From: a virus
Lineage: Duplodnaviria > Heunggongvirae > Uroviricota > Caudoviricetes
Virus record (IMG/VR): IMGVR_UViG_2778261507_000009
Location: 1-47,224 of that record
Length of the DNA: 47,224 nucleotides
Strand: one strand, 5' to 3'
Shown here: one piece after another, positions 6,041-42,191 of the stretch
How positions within the stretch are numbered: position 1 is the first letter of the stretch
Layout: every line of letters begins with the position of its first letter
Program-made: the position numbers and the translations under genes
Notes under the pieces: model-generated
The model's input: only the letters and a program-made list of their open reading frames with translations
Database searches by the model: none
What the model was told of the DNA's origin: nothing

Positions 6041-6645
6041 TAAGCAGCCGCTCCTTCTAATTCGTCTCGTCTGATGTTGTAAACGTCCTGCGCTTTGTGC
6101 TGCTCCGGTGTGCCTTCGAGCATCTTCCACGCTTTGGCGAACGCCTGTTTAAGCTCTTCTACGGTGTTTTTCTGCATTGCTGCGTCAGTGAATGCTTTTA
6201 GAACCTGTTCAGGTGTAGGTGATGGTTTTGATTGCTTTGCTGCTGCGTTCTGCTGATGTTTATGCTCGTCTGTATCTGCATCTTTCGCATCATCAATGCC
6301 GAACAAACCATTGAGGCAATACTTGCGTGCATAAGAGCTTGTAGCTCCCGTAACTTGTGCAGAATCCATTCCTTTCTTGCTTTCTTCCTCTCGTGCAAGA
6401 GCGGTTGCCGTATGACTGTTTTCGCCATCGGTAATAGTTGCCGTGGCTTTCACGTAATACCGATCACCAATCAACACAACTTCATCGCTGATTGATAAAA
6501 ACAGACCATTCAGTAACGGCTTAACGCCTTCAAGAATATCTTCGCAGCTTCTGTATTTATATTTACCGAATGAGTTGTACTGATTCTTTGGCGCGTTCAG
6601 ATTCTCCTGAATAGCTGCCAGTCTTGCGTAAAATTCTTTGCTCAT
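6040..6645 (-). CDS. erf: Erf family single-strand annealing recombinase
   Basis: Sequence from MSKEFYARL... closely resembles P22 Erf as I recall it; alternative upstream start at 6675. Confidence 0.7.
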   Translation of the reverse strand: MSKEFYARLAAIQENLNAPKNQYNSFGKYKYRSCEDILEGVKPLLNGLFLSISDEVVLIGDRYYVKATATITDGENSHTATALAREEESKKGMDSAQVTGATSSYARKYCLNGLFGIDDAKDADTDEHKHQQNAAAKQSKPSPTPEQVLKAFTDAAMQKNTVEELKQAFAKAWKMLEGTPEQHKAQDVYNIRRDELEGAAA

Positions 6646-17349: not shown

Positions 17350-17525
17350 TGCTTAGCCCATCCCAATCCCTTCAATACCAGAAAGAAAGCGTCGAGCGAG
17401 CTTTAACGTGCGCTAACTGCGGTCAGAAGCTGCATGTGCTGGAAGTTCACGTGTGCTCCGATTGCTGCGCAGAACTGATGAGCGATCCGAATAGCTCAAT
17501 GTACGAGGAAGAAGACGATGAGTGA
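17349..17525 (+). CDS. ninF: NinF protein
   Basis: 58-aa [29 protein letters not shown] matching lambda NinF as recalled. Confidence 0.7.
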   Translation: MLSPSQSLQYQKESVERALTCANCGQKLHVLEVHVCSDCCAELMSDPNSSMYEEEDDE

Positions 17526-18240
17526 GTTAATAAATGGCAATGCCATCAAAATGACAAGCATTGAAATCGCTGAGTTGGTGGGAAGTCGTCATGACAAGGT
17601 GAAACAATCTATTGAACGACTGGCGGCTCGAGGCGTGATCCGAAATCCCCCAATGGTGGTTTTCGAAAAAATCAATAACTTAGGATTACTTCGTGGCGTA
17701 GAGGCTTACGTTTTTGAGGGCGAACAAGGTAAGCGAGACAGCATTATTGTCGTCGCTCAGTTGTCGCCGGAATTCACCGCTCGTCTTGTTGACCGTTGGC
17801 GAGAGCTTGAAGAAACTGCGGTTAATATCCCAAAAACGCTACCAGAAGCGTTGCGCCTTGCTGCTGATCTTGCTGAGCAGAAAATGCAACTGGAAAACCA
17901 GCTCGCAATTGCCGCACCTAAAGTTGAGTTTGCCGATCGCGTTGGCGAGGCCAGCGGAATTTTGATTGGAAACTTTGCAAAGGTTGTCGGTATTGGTCCA
18001 AACAAACTGTTTGCGTGGATGCGCGATCACAAAATCCTTATTGCTTCAGGTTCCCGGCGCAATGTGCCAATGCAGGAATATATGGATCGCGGCTATTTCA
18101 CAGTGAAAGAAACAGCGGTCAATACAAATCACGGAATACAGATATCGTTCACCACAAAAATCACCGGGCGTGGTCAACAGTGGCTGACCAGAAAGCTGCT
18201 CGATAACGGAATGCTGAAAGTAACAGGGGAGGCTGCTTAA
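17518..18240 (+). CDS. Phage regulatory protein Rha / KilA-C antirepressor family
   Basis: 240-aa ORF; N-terminus MTSIEIAELVGSRHDKV typical of Rha family, C-terminal KilAC-like region. Confidence 0.6.
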   Translation: MSELINGNAIKMTSIEIAELVGSRHDKVKQSIERLAARGVIRNPPMVVFEKINNLGLLRGVEAYVFEGEQGKRDSIIVVAQLSPEFTARLVDRWRELEETAVNIPKTLPEALRLAADLAEQKMQLENQLAIAAPKVEFADRVGEASGILIGNFAKVVGIGPNKLFAWMRDHKILIASGSRRNVPMQEYMDRGYFTVKETAVNTNHGIQISFTTKITGRGQQWLTRKLLDNGMLKVTGEAA

Positions 18241-33026: not shown

Positions 33027-34328
33027 ATGGCTACTTGGCAACAAGGAATCAACTCAGGCGGTTTTCTTGCTGGTATCGGTGGACAAAACTCAAATGCGCC
33101 AAAGGCAAGTGATGTAAGTGAGGCGTTGGCCTATATTCGCCAGAACAACGAAATGGAGCGTTCAGGTCGCAATAACATCGGCCTTCAGGCGTTGCAGGGA
33201 CTTGGTAGTGTCGCTCAAACATATCAAGCTGCAAAGCAACAGGAAGCGGATGCTGCATTCCAAAAAGAATATGCGGCAGCCATCCAGTCAGGTGATCGAC
33301 AGCAGGTGCGAGATCTGATGACCAAATACCCTGGTCAATTAGAGAAGATTCAGTCTGGTATGAAGTGGGCAGACGAAGACCAGCGCAATTCTATCGGCAC
33401 CTTAGCGGCTGGCGCACGCCTTGCGGCCTCGTCTCCAGAAGCAATGCAATCATGGCTGCAAAACAACGCCAAGGAACTGGCGCGCGTCGGTGTTGACCCT
33501 AACAGCGTTGCTCAGATGTATCAGCAGAATCCTTCAGGATTTGGTGAGTTTGTTGATCACCTTGGGATGGCTGCTCTTGGTCCGATTGATTACTTCAATG
33601 TTCAGGACAAGATGGATGGTCGTGAAATTGACCGAGGCAGGCTGGCAGAGACAATCCGTAGCAATCAGGCTGGAGAAGCACTAACAGCGCGTGGTCAGGA
33701 CATCCAGATACGTGGACAGAACATCAGCGCACAGAATGCTGCTCTTTCCCGCGAAATACAAAGAGCAGAATTACAAGAAAAGGCTCTTGACAGACAGATA
33801 GCCAGAGAAAGCAATCAGTTAAAGCTTGAAGAGCTAAAGCAGAAACAGGCAGATGTTCGGCAAAAGGCTGAAATAGCCCGCGCTGACAGACAGGCCGCCG
33901 CTCAGGGCGCTGTTGATACGTTCAGCACTGCGCTTGATTCTCTCAACGAGATAGAGCAAAGCCCCGGCCTTTCAAAAGCAGTAGGCATTCGCTCAGCGTT
34001 TCCGACAGTTCCTGGATCTGATGCGGCTAACTTTGAAGCAAGACTCGACACCTTTAAAGCTCAAACTTTCCTCCCTATGGTGCAGTCCCTGAAGGGTATG
34101 GGTGCTCTTTCAGATGCTGAGGGTAAAAAATTATCCGATGCGGTTGGTGCCCTAAGTCCCAAAATGAGTGAAAAGGCTTTTCGTGACTCTATCGGAAAGA
34201 TTAGAAATCAGCTTGAAAGCAAGTTGAGCACTGTTAAAAAACAGTTTGATTATCAGGAGCCGGTGCAGAATATGCCAGGGCAACAATCTACTACTGGCAG
34301 TAACTTTTCTTCACTATGGGGTGATTAA
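33027..34328 (+). CDS. Ejection protein gp20-like
   Basis: 433-aa ORF, position and composition. Confidence 0.55.
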   Translation: MATWQQGINSGGFLAGIGGQNSNAPKASDVSEALAYIRQNNEMERSGRNNIGLQALQGLGSVAQTYQAAKQQEADAAFQKEYAAAIQSGDRQQVRDLMTKYPGQLEKIQSGMKWADEDQRNSIGTLAAGARLAASSPEAMQSWLQNNAKELARVGVDPNSVAQMYQQNPSGFGEFVDHLGMAALGPIDYFNVQDKMDGREIDRGRLAETIRSNQAGEALTARGQDIQIRGQNISAQNAALSREIQRAELQEKALDRQIARESNQLKLEELKQKQADVRQKAEIARADRQAAAQGAVDTFSTALDSLNEIEQSPGLSKAVGIRSAFPTVPGSDAANFEARLDTFKAQTFLPMVQSLKGMGALSDAEGKKLSDAVGALSPKMSEKAFRDSIGKIRNQLESKLSTVKKQFDYQEPVQNMPGQQSTTGSNFSSLWGD

Positions 34329-36607
34329 TGGCTAAAGCATGGAAAGATGTTATCGCCTCTCCACAGTATCAGGCGTTAGCACCAGAACAAAAAGCGCAGG
34401 CTCAGGAACAATACTTCAATGAAGTCGTGGCCCCGCAAGCCGGAGAAAATGCAGAGCAGGCAAAACAAGCGTTTTACTCTGCTTACCCTAGAGGTCTGCT
34501 AGAGAAGGGTAATATTGACATTCACAATCGGCCTGTTGTTAAAAACTCTGATGGCAGCATTAGCACTGTGCGGAGCATGTCTACCAATATAGATGGTAGA
34601 GAGGTGCTGATTCCTACCGTTAGTGATGATGGTCGCATTATGTCTGATGATGAAGCTATTGATAACTTCATGAGGACGGGAAAGCATCTTGGTATGTTCG
34701 ACAATCCTGACGATGCCACTGCATATGCGGAGAGTCTGCACAACCAGCAAGCTGATGAATACCTCCCTAGGAAGAATCAAGCTACACAACAGCCTGTACA
34801 GCAAAGTACACAGGCAGCGCCACAGCAGCAAGGAGGTTTCATTTCCGACCTTGGCAATGCCGCGGCTGAAACTGGTCGCGGACTGGTGCAGGCTGGCGTG
34901 AACGTGGCAAACATACCTGCATCAGTTGCCGATGCTGTAACAAGTGCGGCTGCATGGGCTGGCGGTAAACTCGGTATTGGTGATGGTACATATCAACCAG
35001 CGCCACGAGTAACAACGCAGGGATTAGAGCAGGACTTTGGCCTTCAGCAAGGCGCGCTGACTCCACAAACGACAGAGGGAAGGGTATTTGCTGAAGCATT
35101 GCCTTACCTCACTCCTGCTGGCGTTGAGAGAGCAGCAACACAGGCACCAACACTTGCTGGTCGAATTGCTCAGGGGGCAACACGACTTCTCGCAGAAAAC
35201 GCAGTTGGATCACTTGCTGCAAATAGTGCGAAAGATGATGCGGAAGCACTCGCCACCGATTTAGGCGTTGGTGTGCTGGCTGGCGGTGCTATTAACGCTG
35301 CCGGACGTGGATTAGGTGCTGCTTATCGTGGTGTTCGTGGTTCGATAGCACCAGAAGCGCAACAGGCTATCAGATTTGCAGAGCGTGAAGGAGTTCCTCT
35401 GCACACCACAGACCTGTTACAACCCACTTCCCGCGTCGGAAAAATGGCGCAGACTACAGCAGAAAATATCCCTCTGGCTGGCACAAGCGGAATGAGAGCA
35501 ACGCAACAGGAAGCGAGAAGCCAGTTGGTGCAGAGATTTGCTGATAAATTCGGTGAGTATGATCCAGCGGTTGTTATTGACAGCCTTAAAGCGAAAACAT
35601 CAGGAATTCGTCGTGCTGCAGGGAACCGTCTTGAGCAGGTTCAGAATGCAATGGCGGGAGTCAATATCAAGCCTGCGCGAGCAATTCAGCAGATTGATAC
35701 TGAGATATCTAATCTGCAGAAGCTTGGTAAGGTAGCTGATAACGAGACAATTTCAAAACTTCAGTCATATCGTGATGAGCTTGTTCGCAATGCCGGCCCT
35801 GATGGTCCGGTAAATCTGGATTTGAAGCAATTAAGCGACCTGCGCAGCCAGTTCAGAATGGACGTGAAGGGTGAGCGACCAGTGTTACCAAACCGTTCCG
35901 ATGCTGCCATTCAGCGCGTTTACAAGGCAATGACTGACGATATCAATGGCGCCATTGGTCAGAATCTTGGCAATGATACTCTTCGTAAATATCAGCAGGC
36001 CAATGCCGTCTACGCTGACGAAGCGGCGAAACTAAAGAATACCAGGCTGAAGAATGTTCTCATGAAAGGCGACCTGACGCCGGAAGTTGTCAACAACATG
36101 CTATTCAGCAAGAACAAATCGGAAATTAAGACGCTGTATAACTCAGTTGGTCGTGTTGGCAGGGCGCAAATGCGCAATGGCATCATTGGAAAGGCGATGG
36201 AGAAATCTGGCGGATCCCCTGACCAGTTCCTTCGGCAGCTTAACATCCTGCAAAACCAGACTGGCATCACATTTAAAGGTCAGGAAGCCGCTTATCTGAA
36301 AGGATTGAAAAACTACCTGCAATCCACGCAGCAGGCTGCAAAAGCAGCAGTAACAACACCAACAGGGCAGCAAACCATCCCGTTCATTATCGGGTATGGG
36401 ACGGCAATGAACCCGGCGACAACTGGCGCAGCGGTAAGCTACGGACTTCTTACTCGCGCCTATGAAAGCGAGCCATTCAGAAATGCAATGCTCCGAATGG
36501 CAAACACCCCACGCGGATCAACAGCCTTTGAGAAAGCAATGCAGCAGGCACAAAAGGCAATTAACGCTCTGACGCAGGGGGCTAAGTCTGATGCGTTGTC
36601 AGAATAG
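34328..36607 (+). CDS. Ejection / DNA transfer protein gp16-like
   Basis: 759-aa ORF, last gene of the structural operon before the immI-like region. Confidence 0.55.
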   Translation: MAKAWKDVIASPQYQALAPEQKAQAQEQYFNEVVAPQAGENAEQAKQAFYSAYPRGLLEKGNIDIHNRPVVKNSDGSISTVRSMSTNIDGREVLIPTVSDDGRIMSDDEAIDNFMRTGKHLGMFDNPDDATAYAESLHNQQADEYLPRKNQATQQPVQQSTQAAPQQQGGFISDLGNAAAETGRGLVQAGVNVANIPASVADAVTSAAAWAGGKLGIGDGTYQPAPRVTTQGLEQDFGLQQGALTPQTTEGRVFAEALPYLTPAGVERAATQAPTLAGRIAQGATRLLAENAVGSLAANSAKDDAEALATDLGVGVLAGGAINAAGRGLGAAYRGVRGSIAPEAQQAIRFAEREGVPLHTTDLLQPTSRVGKMAQTTAENIPLAGTSGMRATQQEARSQLVQRFADKFGEYDPAVVIDSLKAKTSGIRRAAGNRLEQVQNAMAGVNIKPARAIQQIDTEISNLQKLGKVADNETISKLQSYRDELVRNAGPDGPVNLDLKQLSDLRSQFRMDVKGERPVLPNRSDAAIQRVYKAMTDDINGAIGQNLGNDTLRKYQQANAVYADEAAKLKNTRLKNVLMKGDLTPEVVNNMLFSKNKSEIKTLYNSVGRVGRAQMRNGIIGKAMEKSGGSPDQFLRQLNILQNQTGITFKGQEAAYLKGLKNYLQSTQQAAKAAVTTPTGQQTIPFIIGYGTAMNPATTGAAVSYGLLTRAYESEPFRNAMLRMANTPRGSTAFEKAMQQAQKAINALTQGAKSDALSE

Positions 36608-36697
36608 CTTTTCAAACACCAGGAACGTGCAAAAACCAAATATGTAGAACGCGAGGTTTATCGTACCACTCTGCATAGGCGATACCTTTGCTGATTG

Positions 36698-37183
36698 TTA
36701 TCTGATGTTACTGCTACTGTTGCATGTGACTGTATTTCCAAACCCTGAATTGCAGTTTGTGTAAGTGTCAACTCGTGTTGGATAGGGTTGAGTTATAACA
36801 GGCTGTCTCGCTTTTTGCTCGATCGCTTGCATTGTGTTTACAGCCTGATAATTCAATAAAGCCTGCTGGAATGCTTGGCTTTGTGCTATTTGTTGGGCTT
36901 GTTCTTGGCTTTGTAATTGAACATAAAGATTCTGAAGCTCAAGCCTTGCCTGTGCGTCACTTATCTTGCCTTCATCGACACCTTGCCCGAGCATCTTCGC
37001 AGCAAGGACATACAGCTTAGGTGTTGGTGCTGATGCCATGCGTGAGTCGTTCTTCACACTGGCATCAAGGCAATTAGCCATATCGCTAAGCTTTTGATAG
37101 CGTTGTTCGCAACTTGCTTGATAGTCACTTACTTTTGCGCATCCAACCAGTAGAAGCGGGATAATTAACAGTGATTTTTTCAT
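36698..37183 (-). CDS. Lipoprotein moron (possible exclusion or conversion factor)
   Basis: 161-aa ORF with AAGGAG RBS; signal peptide and lipobox LLVGC; opposite strand to flanking structural genes. Confidence 0.6.
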   Translation of the reverse strand: MKKSLLIIPLLLVGCAKVSDYQASCEQRYQKLSDMANCLDASVKNDSRMASAPTPKLYVLAAKMLGQGVDEGKISDAQARLELQNLYVQLQSQEQAQQIAQSQAFQQALLNYQAVNTMQAIEQKARQPVITQPYPTRVDTYTNCNSGFGNTVTCNSSSNIR

Positions 37184-37252
37184 ATGGTTAACTCTCCTTA
37201 GTTTTTCACAGGATATCATGAAGGCAATGACTTTTATCCGGAAACTAGATTT

Positions 37253-37519
37253 CTATGTTTCCTTTTTATTATTGCTATACATGGTCTTAAGCGTTTCAAA
37301 AACCATTTTCTTAACCATATCAGATTGTTGTTCTGCCATACGCTCTGCATCGTCAATGTAAACGGATGCAGAGCTTTGTTTAGCCAATGATTCTTCAATC
37401 GCTGCAATTATCTCTGAGTTCAGCGACCTGTTATTCATCTTCGCACGCTGTTTAATCTTCGCGTGGAGTTCATGCGGAAGTCTCAAGTGAAACTGCGCCT
37501 CGTCGTATTTGCTGTACAT
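37253..37519 (-). CDS. mnt: Mnt-like ribbon-helix-helix repressor
   Basis: 88-aa ORF; NNRSLNSEIIAAIEESL and C-terminal AERMAEQQSDMVKKMVFETLK closely resemble P22 Mnt as recalled. Confidence 0.75.
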   Translation of the reverse strand: MYSKYDEAQFHLRLPHELHAKIKQRAKMNNRSLNSEIIAAIEESLAKQSSASVYIDDAERMAEQQSDMVKKMVFETLKTMYSNNKKET

Positions 37520-37640
37520 CCTTGATGCCTCACCAGTTGGGTGGAATGGCATCGTAACCTACTGGATAAATACTCAATAGTACCATTTCGGTATGCAATC
37601 ACATCATGGTTGCATCATATCATTCGTCTGGAGCAATGAA

Positions 37641-39446
37641 ATGTCAGATATCACCGCAAATGTTGTGGTAAGCATGCCTTCGCAACTCTTCACTATGGCT
37701 CGTTCTTTTAAAGCCGTAGCCAATGGCAAAATTTATATTGGTAAAATTGACACTGACCCTGTAAATCCTGAAAACCAGATTCAGGTTTATGTAGAGAACG
37801 AAGACGGCTCTCACGTTCCTGTATCGCAACCAATCATCATTAACGCTGCTGGATATCCGGTATATAACGGACAGATTGCCAAGTTCGTAACTGTACAGGG
37901 CCATTCTATGGCTGTTTATGATGCGTATGGTGCACAGCAGTTTTATTTTCCTAATGTGCTGAAGTATGACCCTGATCAGTTTGGTCCAGACTTCAAAGAG
38001 CAGTTATCTCAATCAGGGGAATACATTAATGATGATTCAAAAGGTGATGCATTAATTGGCGTAAGACAGCCCGTTGCCGGGTCGGTAGCTATCACACAGC
38101 ATGATAAAAACGCACAAATAATCAACTTAAAAGATTTTGGTGCTAAGTGCGATGGTGTAACTGATGACACAGTGGCAATTCAGGCTGCTGTAGCTGCTGC
38201 GCATACTGGTGTCCGTATAGTTCAACCTGCAGGGGTTTGCCTTACATCTCAGCCGTTGTCATTCACTAGTCCTGCATTTTGGTATGGAGATGATGGCGCT
38301 CGCATTAAGCTCATTAGTGGCAGTCATGACTATGTTATGGAAATTGATCTTCGCGGGCCTAGTGGTTCGTTCTGGGGTTATGGGTCACATATTGAAAACA
38401 TTATCTTTGATGGTGGTGGTCACGCAAAAGATGGCCTTTCATTGCGTGGTGTTATCGGAGGTATATTCAAAAATATTCGTGGGACAAATATATCAAGGGC
38501 CGCTATTCATGAATGGTGGACCCAACTTTGCCACTATGAAAATATTCAATGCAGTAATAATATTGAAGCATTCCAAACAACCCCTGTTCACGGAATCTTA
38601 TCTGATTGTGAGTTTGGAACTGGTAATGATCGTGGGTCTTCTGCAAATACTTACATGAATACCACTATTGAACATACCTCTGGTAGTGGGATTTGTGGGG
38701 TGTTTATGTCTAATTGTACATTTATAAATGGCACATCAGAAGGTAACGATATTGGCATTGAGTTTGGTCACGCTACTGATGATAGAAACCAATCAGTTGG
38801 GAATTCAGTTATTGGTATGGATCTTGAGGTTAATTCTTTAACTGATGTGTTATTACATAAAACAACATATGCAAATGACTTTATTGGTCTAAAAGCTGGT
38901 TATTCATCTCCAGCCATTCAGGTGCAAGGCTCATATGCTAATAGCTTTATTGGTGGAGTAAGCAGTGGTATAGATTTTGACTCATCATCGCATGATAATA
39001 AAGTAATAGGTATGAATCTTTTAGGCAACGATTCTATCATCGTAGATAATGGATCAAGAAATTCATATGAGAATATTTTCAATATTTCATCTGGAGCTAA
39101 AAAAGAAAGCACTAACCCTTATCCATCGCGTAGCAACAATATAATTTCATCAAATGGTACTGTGCAAATTAACCCATTTTTATCATCATACTGTGTTGTG
39201 TCGGCTGCTGGTTCACCAATTAATGTTACGTCTGTAGCAAAAAGATTAGACGGTGCGACTATTGATATGACTATTCATAACATTTCTGGATCTGATGAAT
39301 TAATAGTAAACTGGTCTTCTGACTTCAGAGTTTCTGGATGGACAAGCCCGGCAACAGGGCGCCACCGGTCTATAAGATTTGCTTATGATGCAAACTACGG
39401 ATACTGGACTGCTATATCTATGAGTCAGTCAGATATTCTGAACTAA
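37641..39446 (+). CDS. Tailspike protein: P22-type head-binding N-domain fused to a pectate-lyase-like beta-helix receptor domain
   Basis: N-terminal 120 aa match P22 gp9 as recalled; remainder has beta-helix repeats and is AT-rich. Confidence 0.85.
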
Positions 39447-39467
39447 GATTTATGCTGTGGGGGGGGG

Positions 39468-40586
39468 TTATTCCCCCTGTTTTACTTTCCTCATATCCAC
39501 CAGTTTACCAGGGATGCTCATAAATATCCTATTTCTAATCTTGTTAGTAAGTATCACTTCAATATATTTATGCGAAAGAAATGCAATAAAAATTGATAAA
39601 ATTAGTAAAATAGTGAACCCGTATACATTGTGCATCACACCTGGATTATTAGCCTCAACCTGCCATGAAATGTAACTACCTACCTGGTTATGAAGCAGAT
39701 ACCATGAGAAGGAAATATCACCAAGCATTACAAAAAATGATGGTGTAATTTTTGTTATAACTTCATCATTTATTACGAACGCCACTAAGAGGAAGTATGC
39801 AATGATGCCTGTCTTTAAATTATAACCTTCAATAGAACCATTGAAGACTGCAGTCATAAAAATTAATGCCGATATAGCAGTGAATGAGTATTTTAATCTA
39901 TTGCTCCATGATTTTGCTGAACGCACTGTGTGCCCAGCAAGGATGCCTAAAGCAAATTCAATTACTATCGGATTTGTTAAAAAGCTAAGTTCTGGAGTAC
40001 CAGTTTTATAACCTGAAGTGGATAATGTTACATTTCCAGTCAACATATATCCTACAAGGATAGTTGTCATTATCCATACGACTATGCCAGAGGTTCTTTT
40101 ATTGAATAATAAACAAAGTGCGAATACAAGATAGAAGTATAATTCATAGTTAAGCGTCCATCTAATAACAAATATACCACCAGCATCAACATACAAAGGA
40201 GGGTACGCATCCGTAAAAGGAGAGAATGTTAAAGCACTCAGTAAATTTTCCACCTTAGCTTGGTCAACGAAGATTCCAACTTCCCATGTAAAGTAGAAAG
40301 CTGTAAAGAGAGCAATAAAATATGTAGGAAAAATCCTTGTGAGTCTTTCTACGGAAAAGAATATAGCAGACTTTATACCAGATGGCTTACGGCTAGTGAT
40401 ATGCATCATAATAAAACCACTTATTACGAAGAACAAATCAACACCAGCAGAACCCCAAGATAAATATTTATTAGGGATAGTTAAATCTCCATACAATGGT
40501 GATAACCAAAATCTGTAGTGAAAAAGAACTACAGACAATGCAGCTAATCCTCTAAGTATCTGTACTGAGCTAAGTTTATTGTTCAT
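39468..40586 (-). CDS. Acyltransferase family 3 membrane protein (O-antigen acetylase Oac-like)
   Basis: 372-aa multi-TM ORF, AT-rich; N-terminal RGLAALSVVLFH motif typical of acyltransferase_3; between tailspike and int as oac is in Sf6. Confidence 0.75.
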   Translation of the reverse strand: MNNKLSSVQILRGLAALSVVLFHYRFWLSPLYGDLTIPNKYLSWGSAGVDLFFVISGFIMMHITSRKPSGIKSAIFFSVERLTRIFPTYFIALFTAFYFTWEVGIFVDQAKVENLLSALTFSPFTDAYPPLYVDAGGIFVIRWTLNYELYFYLVFALCLLFNKRTSGIVVWIMTTILVGYMLTGNVTLSTSGYKTGTPELSFLTNPIVIEFALGILAGHTVRSAKSWSNRLKYSFTAISALIFMTAVFNGSIEGYNLKTGIIAYFLLVAFVINDEVITKITPSFFVMLGDISFSWYLLHNQVGSYISWQVEANNPGVMHNVYGFTILLILSIFIAFLSHKYIEVILTNKIRNRIFMSIPGKLVDMRKVKQGE

Positions 40587-40797
40587 TATTAAACCGATCA
40601 CTTTCTGTAAATGTCATTCACATGATTATGCGATAAAACCCATAGTAATCCATTATAAATTTTTCTATATGAAACATAAGAAAAATTCACTGAGTTGTTG
40701 AATTGATACATCTCATCTTTCAACGACAATGTCTACAAAACACACAAAGCTTTGCACTGGATTGCAATGATTTGTGTCATTCGATAGTTAATGTGGA

Positions 40798-41955
40798 TCA
40801 CTCCACCTTTTCATCAAGCCAGTCCGCCCACCATTGCATCATTTCTCTGCGCTTATCGAGATACTGAGCATGGTTGTAAATCCCGCGCACAGAACCGCCG
40901 TTGGCATGTGCCAGCTGCACTTCAATAGCGTCAGCAGGCCATTCGTGCTCGTTCATAATCGTGCTGAATTCATGCCTGAATCCGTGACCGCTTTCCAGAC
41001 CTTCATAGCCGATTTGTTTGATCACAAGCAATACCGCGTTCTCGCAGATTGGCTTCTTCTTATCGTTGCGCCCGGCAAAAACAAACTCTGAGACTGGTTT
41101 GGTGATTGAGCTTAGCGTAGTGAGAAGTTCAACCACCTGGTCTGACATCGGGACCACATGAATTTTGCGTCCCTTCATCACACTGGCGTCGATGGTGATA
41201 ATCCTGTTTTCAAAATCGACGTTCTTCCATAGCATGGAACGAAGCTCTTTTGTTCTTAGGGCTGTGTAGCGTAAAACTTTGGTCGCAATGAGCGATACGA
41301 TACTTCCTGAAAATGTTGCCAGTGCTTTGTTGAATGCCGGGATCTGGTCTGCAGGAAGAAACGGGAAGTTCTTCTTGCGGTATCCCTTCATGGCGTCCGC
41401 AAGGTCAGGTGCCGGGTTGTATTTAGCCCTTCCGGTGACAATAGCGTAACGGAAAACTTCGCCGCATCTTCTGCGGGCTTTGTTGGCTCGCTCCATTGCA
41501 CCGCGATCTTCAAATCTGCGGATTACTTCCAGCAGTTGCATCGGCTCAATATCCTGAATTTCAAGGCTGCCGATGATAGGTAAAATGTCGTCATCAAACA
41601 TTTTTGCAAGTTCATTTGCATAGCCTACTGACCAGACTTGCTTCTTGTGCTCGTACCATTCCTTGTAAATGGCACTAAAGGAATTGTTGTTAGACGAAGC
41701 CTTTTTCGCTTTTACCGGATCGATACCAACCGAGATGTCTTTCCTCGCAGTCCATGCTTTATCCCTTGCCTCCTGCAAAGTCATAAGCGGATATTTTCCT
41801 ACGGTCAGTATTTTTTCCTTACCGTCAATCTTGTAGCGAAGCTGCCATACCTTTTTCCCGGATACAGGGACATAAAGGTACAGGCCATTACCATCGAGAA
41901 GGCGGTATGGTTTTTCTTTCGGCTTTGCTGCTTCAATCTGCTTAACGGTGAGCAT
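40798..41955 (-). CDS. intS: Tyrosine integrase (P4/IntS family)
   Basis: 385-aa ORF from MLTVKQIEAAKP, adjacent to argW; C-terminal catalytic HxxR...Y region; matches IntS as recalled. Confidence 0.85.
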   Translation of the reverse strand: MLTVKQIEAAKPKEKPYRLLDGNGLYLYVPVSGKKVWQLRYKIDGKEKILTVGKYPLMTLQEARDKAWTARKDISVGIDPVKAKKASSNNNSFSAIYKEWYEHKKQVWSVGYANELAKMFDDDILPIIGSLEIQDIEPMQLLEVIRRFEDRGAMERANKARRRCGEVFRYAIVTGRAKYNPAPDLADAMKGYRKKNFPFLPADQIPAFNKALATFSGSIVSLIATKVLRYTALRTKELRSMLWKNVDFENRIITIDASVMKGRKIHVVPMSDQVVELLTTLSSITKPVSEFVFAGRNDKKKPICENAVLLVIKQIGYEGLESGHGFRHEFSTIMNEHEWPADAIEVQLAHANGGSVRGIYNHAQYLDKRREMMQWWADWLDEKVE

Positions 41956-42116
41956 GGGTAAAAATCCGGTGGGTAAAATTATTTTATCCACTTTTTACCC
42001 GTCATGGAGTGCGGCTGTCAACGATCTGACGCGAACCATTACGAACTGTTAATCTACGGAAGGCTTGATATTCAGGGGATTTTGCGGACTGGTACGGATG
42101 GGAGCGAACTGATAAA

Positions 42117-42191
42117 TGGTGTCCCCTGCAGGAATCGAACCTGCAATTAGCCCTTAGGAGGGGCTCGTTATATCCATTTAACTAAGAGGAC
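42117..42191 (-). tRNA. argW: tRNA-Arg (anticodon CCU)
   Basis: 75-nt cloverleaf on minus strand, anticodon loop CUCCUAA, T-arm GGTTCGATTCC, 3' CCA; 3' 15 nt duplicated at 1690..1704. Confidence 0.9.

Follow-up and report, generated by a model that had tools for sequence, protein, structure and literature searches.

We analysed a stretch of 47,224 nucleotides (IMG/VR record IMGVR_UViG_2778261507_000009), hereafter called the window, which is a segment of enterobacterial chromosome holding a complete P22-like prophage at tRNA-Arg(CCT). Between the genes for its ejection protein and its tailspike lie a leftward gene for a homologue of the P22 repressor Mnt, a single operator-like palindrome and a gene for a predicted lipoprotein, and there is neither an arc nor an ant gene. 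Our main new contribution concerns the selection that acts on the tailspike-proximal unit of mnt and operator. The comparison of related loci suggests that the two are kept as a unit next to the tailspike gene, even beside a second complete immunity region, and there is a modest chance that they have an unrecognised function.

We read the interval as the 'ant moron', that is the reduced immunity-I (immI) region, of a P22-type prophage that resembles Sf101/Sf6 and is integrated at argW. This assignment and the scheme set out below for Pmnt-driven Mnt, the operator, the lipoprotein, the loss of arc, ant and sar, and read-through into the tailspike gene form one joint proposal, which in our judgement tips slightly toward being right. 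The homology and anatomy of the module, its conservation, the purifying selection on it and its prevalence are read directly from the sequences.

An mnt gene without arc or ant

The genes of the interval and of its borders are as follows.

34328..36607, plus strand: gene for a P22 gp16-type DNA ejection protein, the left border of the 'ant moron' slot (phrog_770 DNA transfer protein, 1.8e-234)
36698..37183, minus strand: lipoprotein moron of 161 residues, beginning MKKSLLIIPLLLVGC, with a signal peptide and the lipobox LVGC
37253..37519, minus strand: gene for an mnt-family ribbon-helix-helix repressor of 88 residues with a C-terminal Mnt tetramerisation helix (from Pfam, the P22 Mnt structures and the Prokaryotic Genome Annotation Pipeline, PGAP)
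37641..39446, plus strand: gene for the tailspike, whose head-binding domain is of P22 type (Head_binding, 4e-67) and whose receptor domain is pectate-lyase-like

Judged by its sequence, the product of the gene at 37253..37519 is a true homologue of Mnt, 47% identical to the P22 protein and possessing both of its domains. The N-terminal ribbon-helix-helix DNA-binding domain matches Pfam Arc (PF03869, 8.4e-15, residues 7-49) and the C-terminal coiled-coil tetramerisation domain matches Repressor_Mnt (PF11423, 4e-12, residues 57-81). The solved structures of P22 Mnt are matched as well, by 1MNT over residues 6-78 (5.7e-19) and by the tetramerisation domain 1QEY (1.2e-06). The PGAP annotation of Escherichia coli B7A makes the identical three gene calls, including an mnt gene of 267 bp. 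An alternative start at 37552, used in the annotation of Sf101 and giving 99 residues, lies inside the promoter region and is unsupported by the alignment with P22 Mnt; PGAP uses 37519. We note that mnt is labelled 'partition protein ATPase' in RefSeq NC_002371 (P22 mnt) and NC_027398 (Sf101 gp14), and in phrog_795. For a ribbon-helix-helix repressor of 83-88 residues this label is evidently an annotation error that is propagating.

A preliminary description of the window, made from its letters, had placed an Mnt-like gene here diverging from the tailspike start, with no arc or ant gene beside it. The coordinates, the Pfam matches and 1MNT bear this out. The start of mnt is separated from that of the tailspike gene by 121 bp, and the tailspike ATG at 37641 is preceded by a Shine-Dalgarno sequence GGAG at 37630..37633. 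No open reading frame of either the arc or the ant kind is present in 37520..37640, and for sar there is no Rfam match within 34000..40000 at E <= 1. A tblastn search with P22 Arc found no arc gene adjacent in the 80 closest loci.

In P22 the immI region (sieA-mnt and arc-ant-sar) likewise lies between genes 16 and 9, has the same leftward mnt, and shares with the window an alignable Pmnt/Omnt control region with a palindromic operator at the same position. The window differs from it in having no arc, ant, sar or sieA, in the decay of the rightward promoter Pant, and in the sequence of the operator half-site, GTACC in place of GGTCCAC, with the operator lying 46 bp from the tailspike start.

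The candidate operator and predicted promoters of the mnt-tailspike interval

The following elements were recognised between the two divergent genes.

37580..37594, palindrome: candidate Mnt operator GTACC-ATTTC-GGTAT, aligning with P22 Omnt
37551..37577, minus strand: predicted Pmnt, with -35 TTGAGT (37577->37572), a 15-bp spacer and -10 TACGAT (37556->37551), aligning with P22 Pmnt TTGAGA-17-TATCAT
37546..37572, plus strand: decayed relic of Pant, with ATGGCA (37546..37551), a 15-bp spacer and TAAATA (37567..37572), aligning with P22 Pant TTGACA-17-TATATT
37524..37553, no strand assigned: inverted repeat GATGCC-N18-GGCATC, covering the Pmnt -10 and the region where mnt translation starts
37593..37615, plus strand: possible tailspike-leader hairpin ATGCAATCA / TGGTTGCAT, weakly supported by repeat search and folds

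The sequence from 37520 to ~37600 aligns with the Pmnt/Pant/Oarc/Omnt region of P22, for which the promoters and operators annotated in NC_002371 served as reference. In this alignment the P22 operator AGGTCCAC-G-GTGGACCT corresponds to GTACC-ATTTC-GGTAT in the window. The Mnt operator-like palindrome that the preliminary description had looked for in 37520..37640 is therefore present, as TACC-N5-GGTA at 37581..37593 and at the position of P22 Omnt. The 47-kb window has a single copy of this core, where chance would give 0.19. The center of the operator is upstream of both starts, by ~43 bp for the predicted start of Pmnt and by 54 bp for the tailspike ATG. No further operator was found in the whole window, either with up to three mismatches or as the core TACC-N5-GGTA, and this includes the surroundings of the Rha/KilAC gene at 17518..18240. 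That gene is the antirepressor candidate that had been proposed (Pfam ANT, 9.3e-33) and the sole gene of the window with an ANT domain, but a connection with mnt is not supported, since there is no second operator.

The recognition strand of the window Mnt is QFHLR, against HFNFR in P22, and the Mnt type of phage L and 720R6 (QFNLR) pairs with a third operator, AGACCAC-N-GTGGTCT. Since recognition strand and operator both differ among the three types, the Mnt protein and its site change together. Perfectly symmetric variants of the window operator, GTACC-N5-GGTAC and CATACC-N5-GGTATG, are found among relatives. In a minority of loci, namely the L008 group (6 loci), L059, L031, L046 and L092, the right half-site of the operator has a point mutation (for example GGTA to TGTA), with Mnt unchanged.

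Across 75 distinct intergenic variants of related loci, the best-conserved blocks are the operator and the Pmnt -10, which is invariant, and several unrelated sequence types fill the stretch from the operator to the tailspike Shine-Dalgarno sequence. Pmnt was not detected by a consensus promoter scan because its spacer is 15 bp long. The Pant-aligned hexamers of the window lack the key A-11/T-7 combination. They read TCGGCA-17-TATATC in phage L, and are comparably poor in VSe13 and 720R6. Thus in four independent orphan types, those of the window, VSe13, 720R6 and phage L, the hexamers of Pmnt are kept and those of Pant are degraded.

The overlapping Pmnt and Pant hexamers share a spacer of 15 bp in loci with a 121-bp mnt-tailspike gap and of 17 bp in those with a 135-bp gap, the result of a 2-bp indel (window 37557..37571), and both forms are widespread. 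The inverted repeat GATGCC-N18-GGCATC is kept in the 75 unique intergenic variants even where its interior differs, and has a degenerate form in P22 and phage L. The leader hairpin directly follows the operator in both of the unrelated leader families, with an equivalent in the 135-bp type and in P22 (L004, 6161..6177). Its variants keep pairing through U-G, C-G and U-A, with 86.5% paired in the pair count and only 2 compensatory cells; the single-sequence z is -1.0 and RNAalifold did not recover the hairpin. A leftward promoter-like site at 37647->37619 is within chance expectation and is unconserved in the 135-bp type, and we have not used it.

Selection on mnt and its operator

When the window mnt is compared with diverged relatives, the protein proves conserved although synonymous sites have reached saturation. 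The ratio of nonsynonymous to synonymous substitution rates (dN/dS) is 0.04-0.12 where dS can be estimated, ~0.05 in the DNA-binding domain, and 0.21 against the Sf101 type. These low values argue that mnt is not a dead relic.

The operator was sought in viral contigs, and the figures that follow hold among the matches listed in that scan, where the flanks could be judged in 119 loci. An mnt gene lies 56-63 bp away on one side in 119 of the 119. On the other side the tailspike ATG is found at 45-61 bp, with exceptions due to insertions of HNH endonuclease genes or insertion sequences (IS) and to an ant fragment in locus L142.

Relatives of the VSe13 type, which have the same N-terminal domain of Mnt, extend this picture. 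In 26 of their 71 loci (L089-L159) there is in addition a complete second immunity region toward gene 16, consisting of another ribbon-helix-helix repressor, an Arc homologue and an antirepressor with a P22_AR or Bro-N domain. These loci have only one copy of the operator, and it adjoins the tailspike gene. On the sequence matches listed, the sole detectable target of the window-type Mnt would be its own site. All this is evidence that selection retains the orphan mnt and its operator together beside the tailspike gene, whether or not another immunity region is present. In L099 and L120, which are representative, the tailspike-proximal mnt is convergent with the end of the ant operon of the second immI module.

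The lipoprotein

The preliminary description had also noted a lipoprotein gene with a ribosome-binding site and lipobox just downstream of mnt, and this too stands. The ribosome-binding site is AAGGAG, and the N-terminus of the product conforms to the lipobox [LVI][ASTVI][GAS]C. The codon of Cys15 is at 37139..37141, with Ala at +2, and the protein has four conserved Cys. Among 25 homologues, the most distant of them 46% identical, Cys15 never varies and Gly14 is at least 90% conserved. The signal peptide and lipobox thus predict an acylated lipoprotein. Upstream of the gene we find one further element.

37218->37210, minus strand: candidate lipoprotein promoter with an extended -10, TGATATCCT, read from the sequence

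The motif TCATGrTATCCTG is common to the window and to VSe13, whose lipoprotein gene does not directly follow mnt; VSe13 and 720R6 have an extra gene between the two. On the minus strand the scan found no terminator-like site after mnt or after the lipoprotein gene, so that read-through from Pmnt into the lipoprotein gene is likely.

Homologues of the lipoprotein (n=94) are spread over the Enterobacterales, in Escherichia, Citrobacter, Serratia, Cronobacter, Klebsiella, Pectobacterium, Yersinia, Morganella, Providencia and Tatumella. In P22-like prophages of Morganella and Yersinia ruckeri the lipoprotein gene lies alone between gene 16 and the tailspike gene, without mnt, and in Sf101-type phages mnt is present without the lipoprotein gene. 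The two are therefore separate modules, and the lipoprotein gene is an independently mobile moron with a candidate promoter of its own.

The family has no annotated function. The protein belongs to phrog_6067 ('unknown function', 1.6e-110), and has no match to a Pfam, NCBIfam or PADLOC family and no sequence match in the PDB. Its AlphaFold model (predicted local distance difference test score, pLDDT, of only 61) has no Foldseek match in the PDB or BFVD. A profile search of 1.8 billion proteins gave ~250 clusters that share the N-terminal helical domain, all of them without annotation in Pfam or cluster names. Small lipoproteins are also encoded by other phages and prophages, among them Cor, Llp, Bor, Rz1 and TraT-like proteins. 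Cor and Llp act at the outer membrane to exclude superinfecting phages. In sequence and modelled fold, the window protein matches none of Bor, Rz1, Cor, Llp, TraT and SieA. It is accordingly neither of the two known lipoproteins, Bor and Rz1, that the preliminary description had considered.

The best functional analogy is with P22 SieA, which shares the slot, the leftward orientation, the expression from the prophage that is predicted for the lipoprotein and, by the SieA study, a spread over similar host genera. The two proteins differ in kind: SieA is a polytopic inner-membrane protein, whereas the window protein is a predicted lipoprotein whose signal peptide would be cleaved, and its sequence does not resemble that of SieA. 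Because the lipoprotein gene has the slot and orientation of sieA and much of its host-genus range, the most reasonable guess, and only a guess, is that its product may serve as an exclusion factor against incoming P22-like phages.

Expression of the module and of the tailspike gene

We propose that the interval holds two independently mobile leftward genes, both of which the prophage would express. A tetramer of Mnt, made from the retained Pmnt, would bind the single operator GTACC-N5-GGTAT next to the Pmnt -35, on its upstream side. If P22 is a guide, a bound operator would regulate Pmnt itself and shut off any residual rightward initiation. The lipoprotein would be targeted to the outer membrane, and both a weak promoter of its own and read-through from Pmnt would contribute to its expression. 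Loss of arc, ant and sar would have occurred by deletion between the operator and the tailspike leader, with decay of the rightward Pant afterwards, and the tailspike would be made by read-through of the late operon across the moron and not from an Mnt-gated promoter. Promoter activity, the binding of Mnt, the sign of the regulation and any phenotype are inferred in this scheme.

The consensus scan found no terminator and no promoter on the plus strand between gene 16 and the tailspike gene, and with Pant decayed this makes late read-through the simplest route to the tailspike. We consider it the most likely one on the sequence features present.

Several features weigh against our proposal. 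The 15-bp spacer of the predicted Pmnt is suboptimal, and the candidate promoter of the lipoprotein gene is weak and escaped the consensus scan. Local autoregulation alone offers no obvious reason for strong purifying selection on mnt, especially in phages of the Sf101 type, which do not have the lipoprotein. Finally, the constant spacing between the operator and the tailspike start could mean that there is a functional link to the tailspike that consensus promoter logic misses.

A bolder version would have the tailspike-proximal mnt exapted as a selected regulator, its single operator, fixed at 45-61 bp from the tailspike start, acting on tailspike dosage or late read-through or driving a leftward immunity transcript in the prophage state. 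The lipoprotein would then be a new outer-membrane or periplasmic exclusion factor that replaces SieA and interferes with the ejection-protein conduit of incoming P22-like phages. We think this unlikely.

Alternatively, a functional rightward promoter may survive in the 121-bp interval, so that Mnt directly gates the tailspike, which would be silent in the lysogen and switched on by induction; such gating is what the preliminary description had put forward. The operator corresponds in position to P22 Omnt, a site that overlaps the start of Pant, and lies upstream of the ATG by 46 bp; its spacing from the tailspike gene is nearly invariant in the 119 operator loci. In P22, transcripts from Pant extend to gene 9, and the moron is considered to affect the level of tailspike (PMC2629481). 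The promoter itself is the difficulty. The consensus scan gave zero plus-strand promoters of sigma-70 type in the interval, and the hexamers aligned with Pant, ATGGCA-15-TAAATA in the window, are poor in all four orphan types. The only good -10-like hexamer on this strand, TATCAT at 37618..37623, would place the start of transcription inside the ribosome-binding site. A gated tailspike promoter is therefore unlikely.

Purifying selection on mnt would equally be expected if Mnt acted in trans, repressing the antirepressor promoter of superinfecting or co-resident P22-like phages and so shielding the prophage's own repressor from Ant. Mnt in P22 lysogens acts in trans on superinfecting P22 in just this role, and the co-occurrence of this mnt type with a complete foreign immI region in 26 of 71 loci is consistent with it. 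Yet a target is hard to find. No arc-ant operon under this type of operator is present in 160 mnt loci or in the 119 operator loci among the matches listed, apart from the one truncated ant fragment of L142; in the loci with a second immI region the single operator adjoins the tailspike gene, although rare targets may exist beyond the matches listed. Lysogens of phage L are not known to be protected from P22 Ant. We regard a role in trans as quite improbable.

The leftward transcription might itself be what is selected, if an unterminated transcript from Pmnt, antisense to the 3' end of the ejection-protein gene, interfered with incoming relatives. The minus strand is free of terminator-like sites after mnt and the lipoprotein gene, and in Sf101-type phages mnt abuts gene 16. 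There is a precedent in exactly the same slot, since the antisense RNA STnc6030 of prophage BTP1 gives immunity to BTP1 (PMC7067206). STnc6030 is likewise a leftward, prophage-expressed transcript at the junction of gene 16 and the tailspike gene of a P22-like prophage. Unlike the transcript proposed for the window, it is non-coding, starts inside the tailspike gene and involves no Mnt. Selection on the Mnt protein, strongest in the DNA-binding domain, and on the operator points to a function of the protein and not of the RNA only, and we give an antisense role little chance.

That the interval is what is left of a decaying immI, non-functional and without a role at present, a possibility raised by the phage L authors (10.1101/2020.10.05.325894) and in keeping with the disappearance of arc, ant, sar and Pant, is very improbable in view of dN/dS values of 0.04-0.21 at saturated dS, an intact mnt in 231 of 5426 E. 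coli genomes, and the conservation of operator and Pmnt across diverged flanks.

Origin of the arrangement

The sequences support an origin of the interval as a deletion derivative of the immI region, because its control region is homologous to that of P22 and because locus L142 is a deletion intermediate. In L142 mnt and the operator are the same, and between them and the tailspike gene lie the 110 C-terminal codons of a P22-type ant (93% identity) with its terminator. The view of the interval as the remnant of an ant deletion, already taken in the preliminary description, is upheld to this extent by the P22-like control region and the ant fragment; as an account of an orphan remnant it is incomplete, since mnt also occurs beside a complete second mnt-arc-ant region.

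In loci of the 135-bp type the sequence that follows the operator, ACCGTAGCCAYGCTGCGGC, is the element found directly upstream of P22 gene 9, with a second copy just after the P22 ant terminator. P22 (L004) holds two direct copies of AATTCACCGTAGCCAYGC, at 6046..6063 after the ant terminator and at 6156..6173 upstream of gene 9. Since the core of this repeat follows the operator in the 135-bp orphan type, it is a candidate boundary for the loss or gain of arc-ant, and a role of the AATTCACCGTAGCCAYGC element in recombination at this point is plausible.

The slot has also received insertions. In L045 an IS element, with open reading frames for IS3-family-like transposase, stands directly after the operator (GGTATG), and mnt and operator are ~1.4 kb from the tailspike gene. 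Four loci (L027, L035, L043 and L058) and E. coli M160133 (hit H35) have an insert of ~550-610 bp just past the first codons of the tailspike gene, and in these a second copy of the first five tailspike codons stands upstream of it.

The prophage and its surroundings

The prophage is flanked in the chromosome by a LacY-type permease gene on the left and by yfdC-like, mlaA and fadL-type genes on the right. Its genes run from a cI-type repressor and cII through those for the head and the ejection proteins to the tailspike; homologues of the product of 34328..36607 are annotated by PGAP as the P22-gp16 family. On the 3' side of the tailspike gene come an O-antigen acyltransferase gene and then an IntS-type integrase gene adjoining the tRNA. 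Over 39468..42191 the integrase gene adjoins tRNA-Arg(CCT) and forms one continuous block with the acyltransferase and tailspike genes, which places the phage genome's attachment site between int and the early-left genes. We take this layout of int and attachment site to be the recombination module of the KplE1/Sf6 type.

Prevalence and significance

The rarity implied by the preliminary description does not hold. Of 5426 complete E. coli genomes, 106 carry the 1161 bp that run from the end of gene 16 into the tailspike N-terminus (at least 80% coverage, ~96-98% identity), and 231 (~4%) match over mnt and the intergenic region taken alone, with the gene intact. Among the best 80 relatives in viral contigs, all 80 have the tailspike gene divergent at 121 bp and none has arc or ant; the lipoprotein gene is carried by ~45 and missing from ~35.

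The layout has also been published. The slot between gene 16 and gene 9 was named the 'ant moron', a region in rapid flux, by Villafane et al. 2008, whose Figure 3 takes in the E. coli B7A prophage (PMC2629481). Morons containing only mnt have been described in phages L, ST64T and ST104 and in the B7A prophage (PMC2629481; phage L preprint 10.1101/2020.10.05.325894). The B7A genome has a copy of the module 97.6% identical to the window, and in phage Sf101 the mnt-tailspike junction is the same, at 97% identity. Over the parts in common B7A and Sf101 are 97-98% identical to the window, Sf101 being without the lipoprotein gene. The mnt-tailspike gap is 121 bp in the window, in B7A and in Sf101 (gp14), against 135 bp in phage L, and none of these has arc or ant. 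Phage L and ST64T have a different specificity type of Mnt (operator AGACCAC-C-GTGGTCT), with orf62 where the window has the lipoprotein gene. The orphan-mnt architecture is thus common and already published.

If the ordinary reading is true, the window holds one more copy of a common, published prophage cassette. It would matter more if the tailspike-proximal Mnt functions beyond silencing a lost antirepressor, a question already posed by the phage L authors, which is sharpened here by the purifying selection on mnt, by the presence of exactly one conserved operator, and by persistence beside a second complete immunity region. It would likewise matter if the lipoprotein, the member of an unannotated family of ~250 sequence clusters, proved to be a new exclusion factor. 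With window-type mnt present in a few per cent of complete E. coli genomes, material for such tests is easily found.

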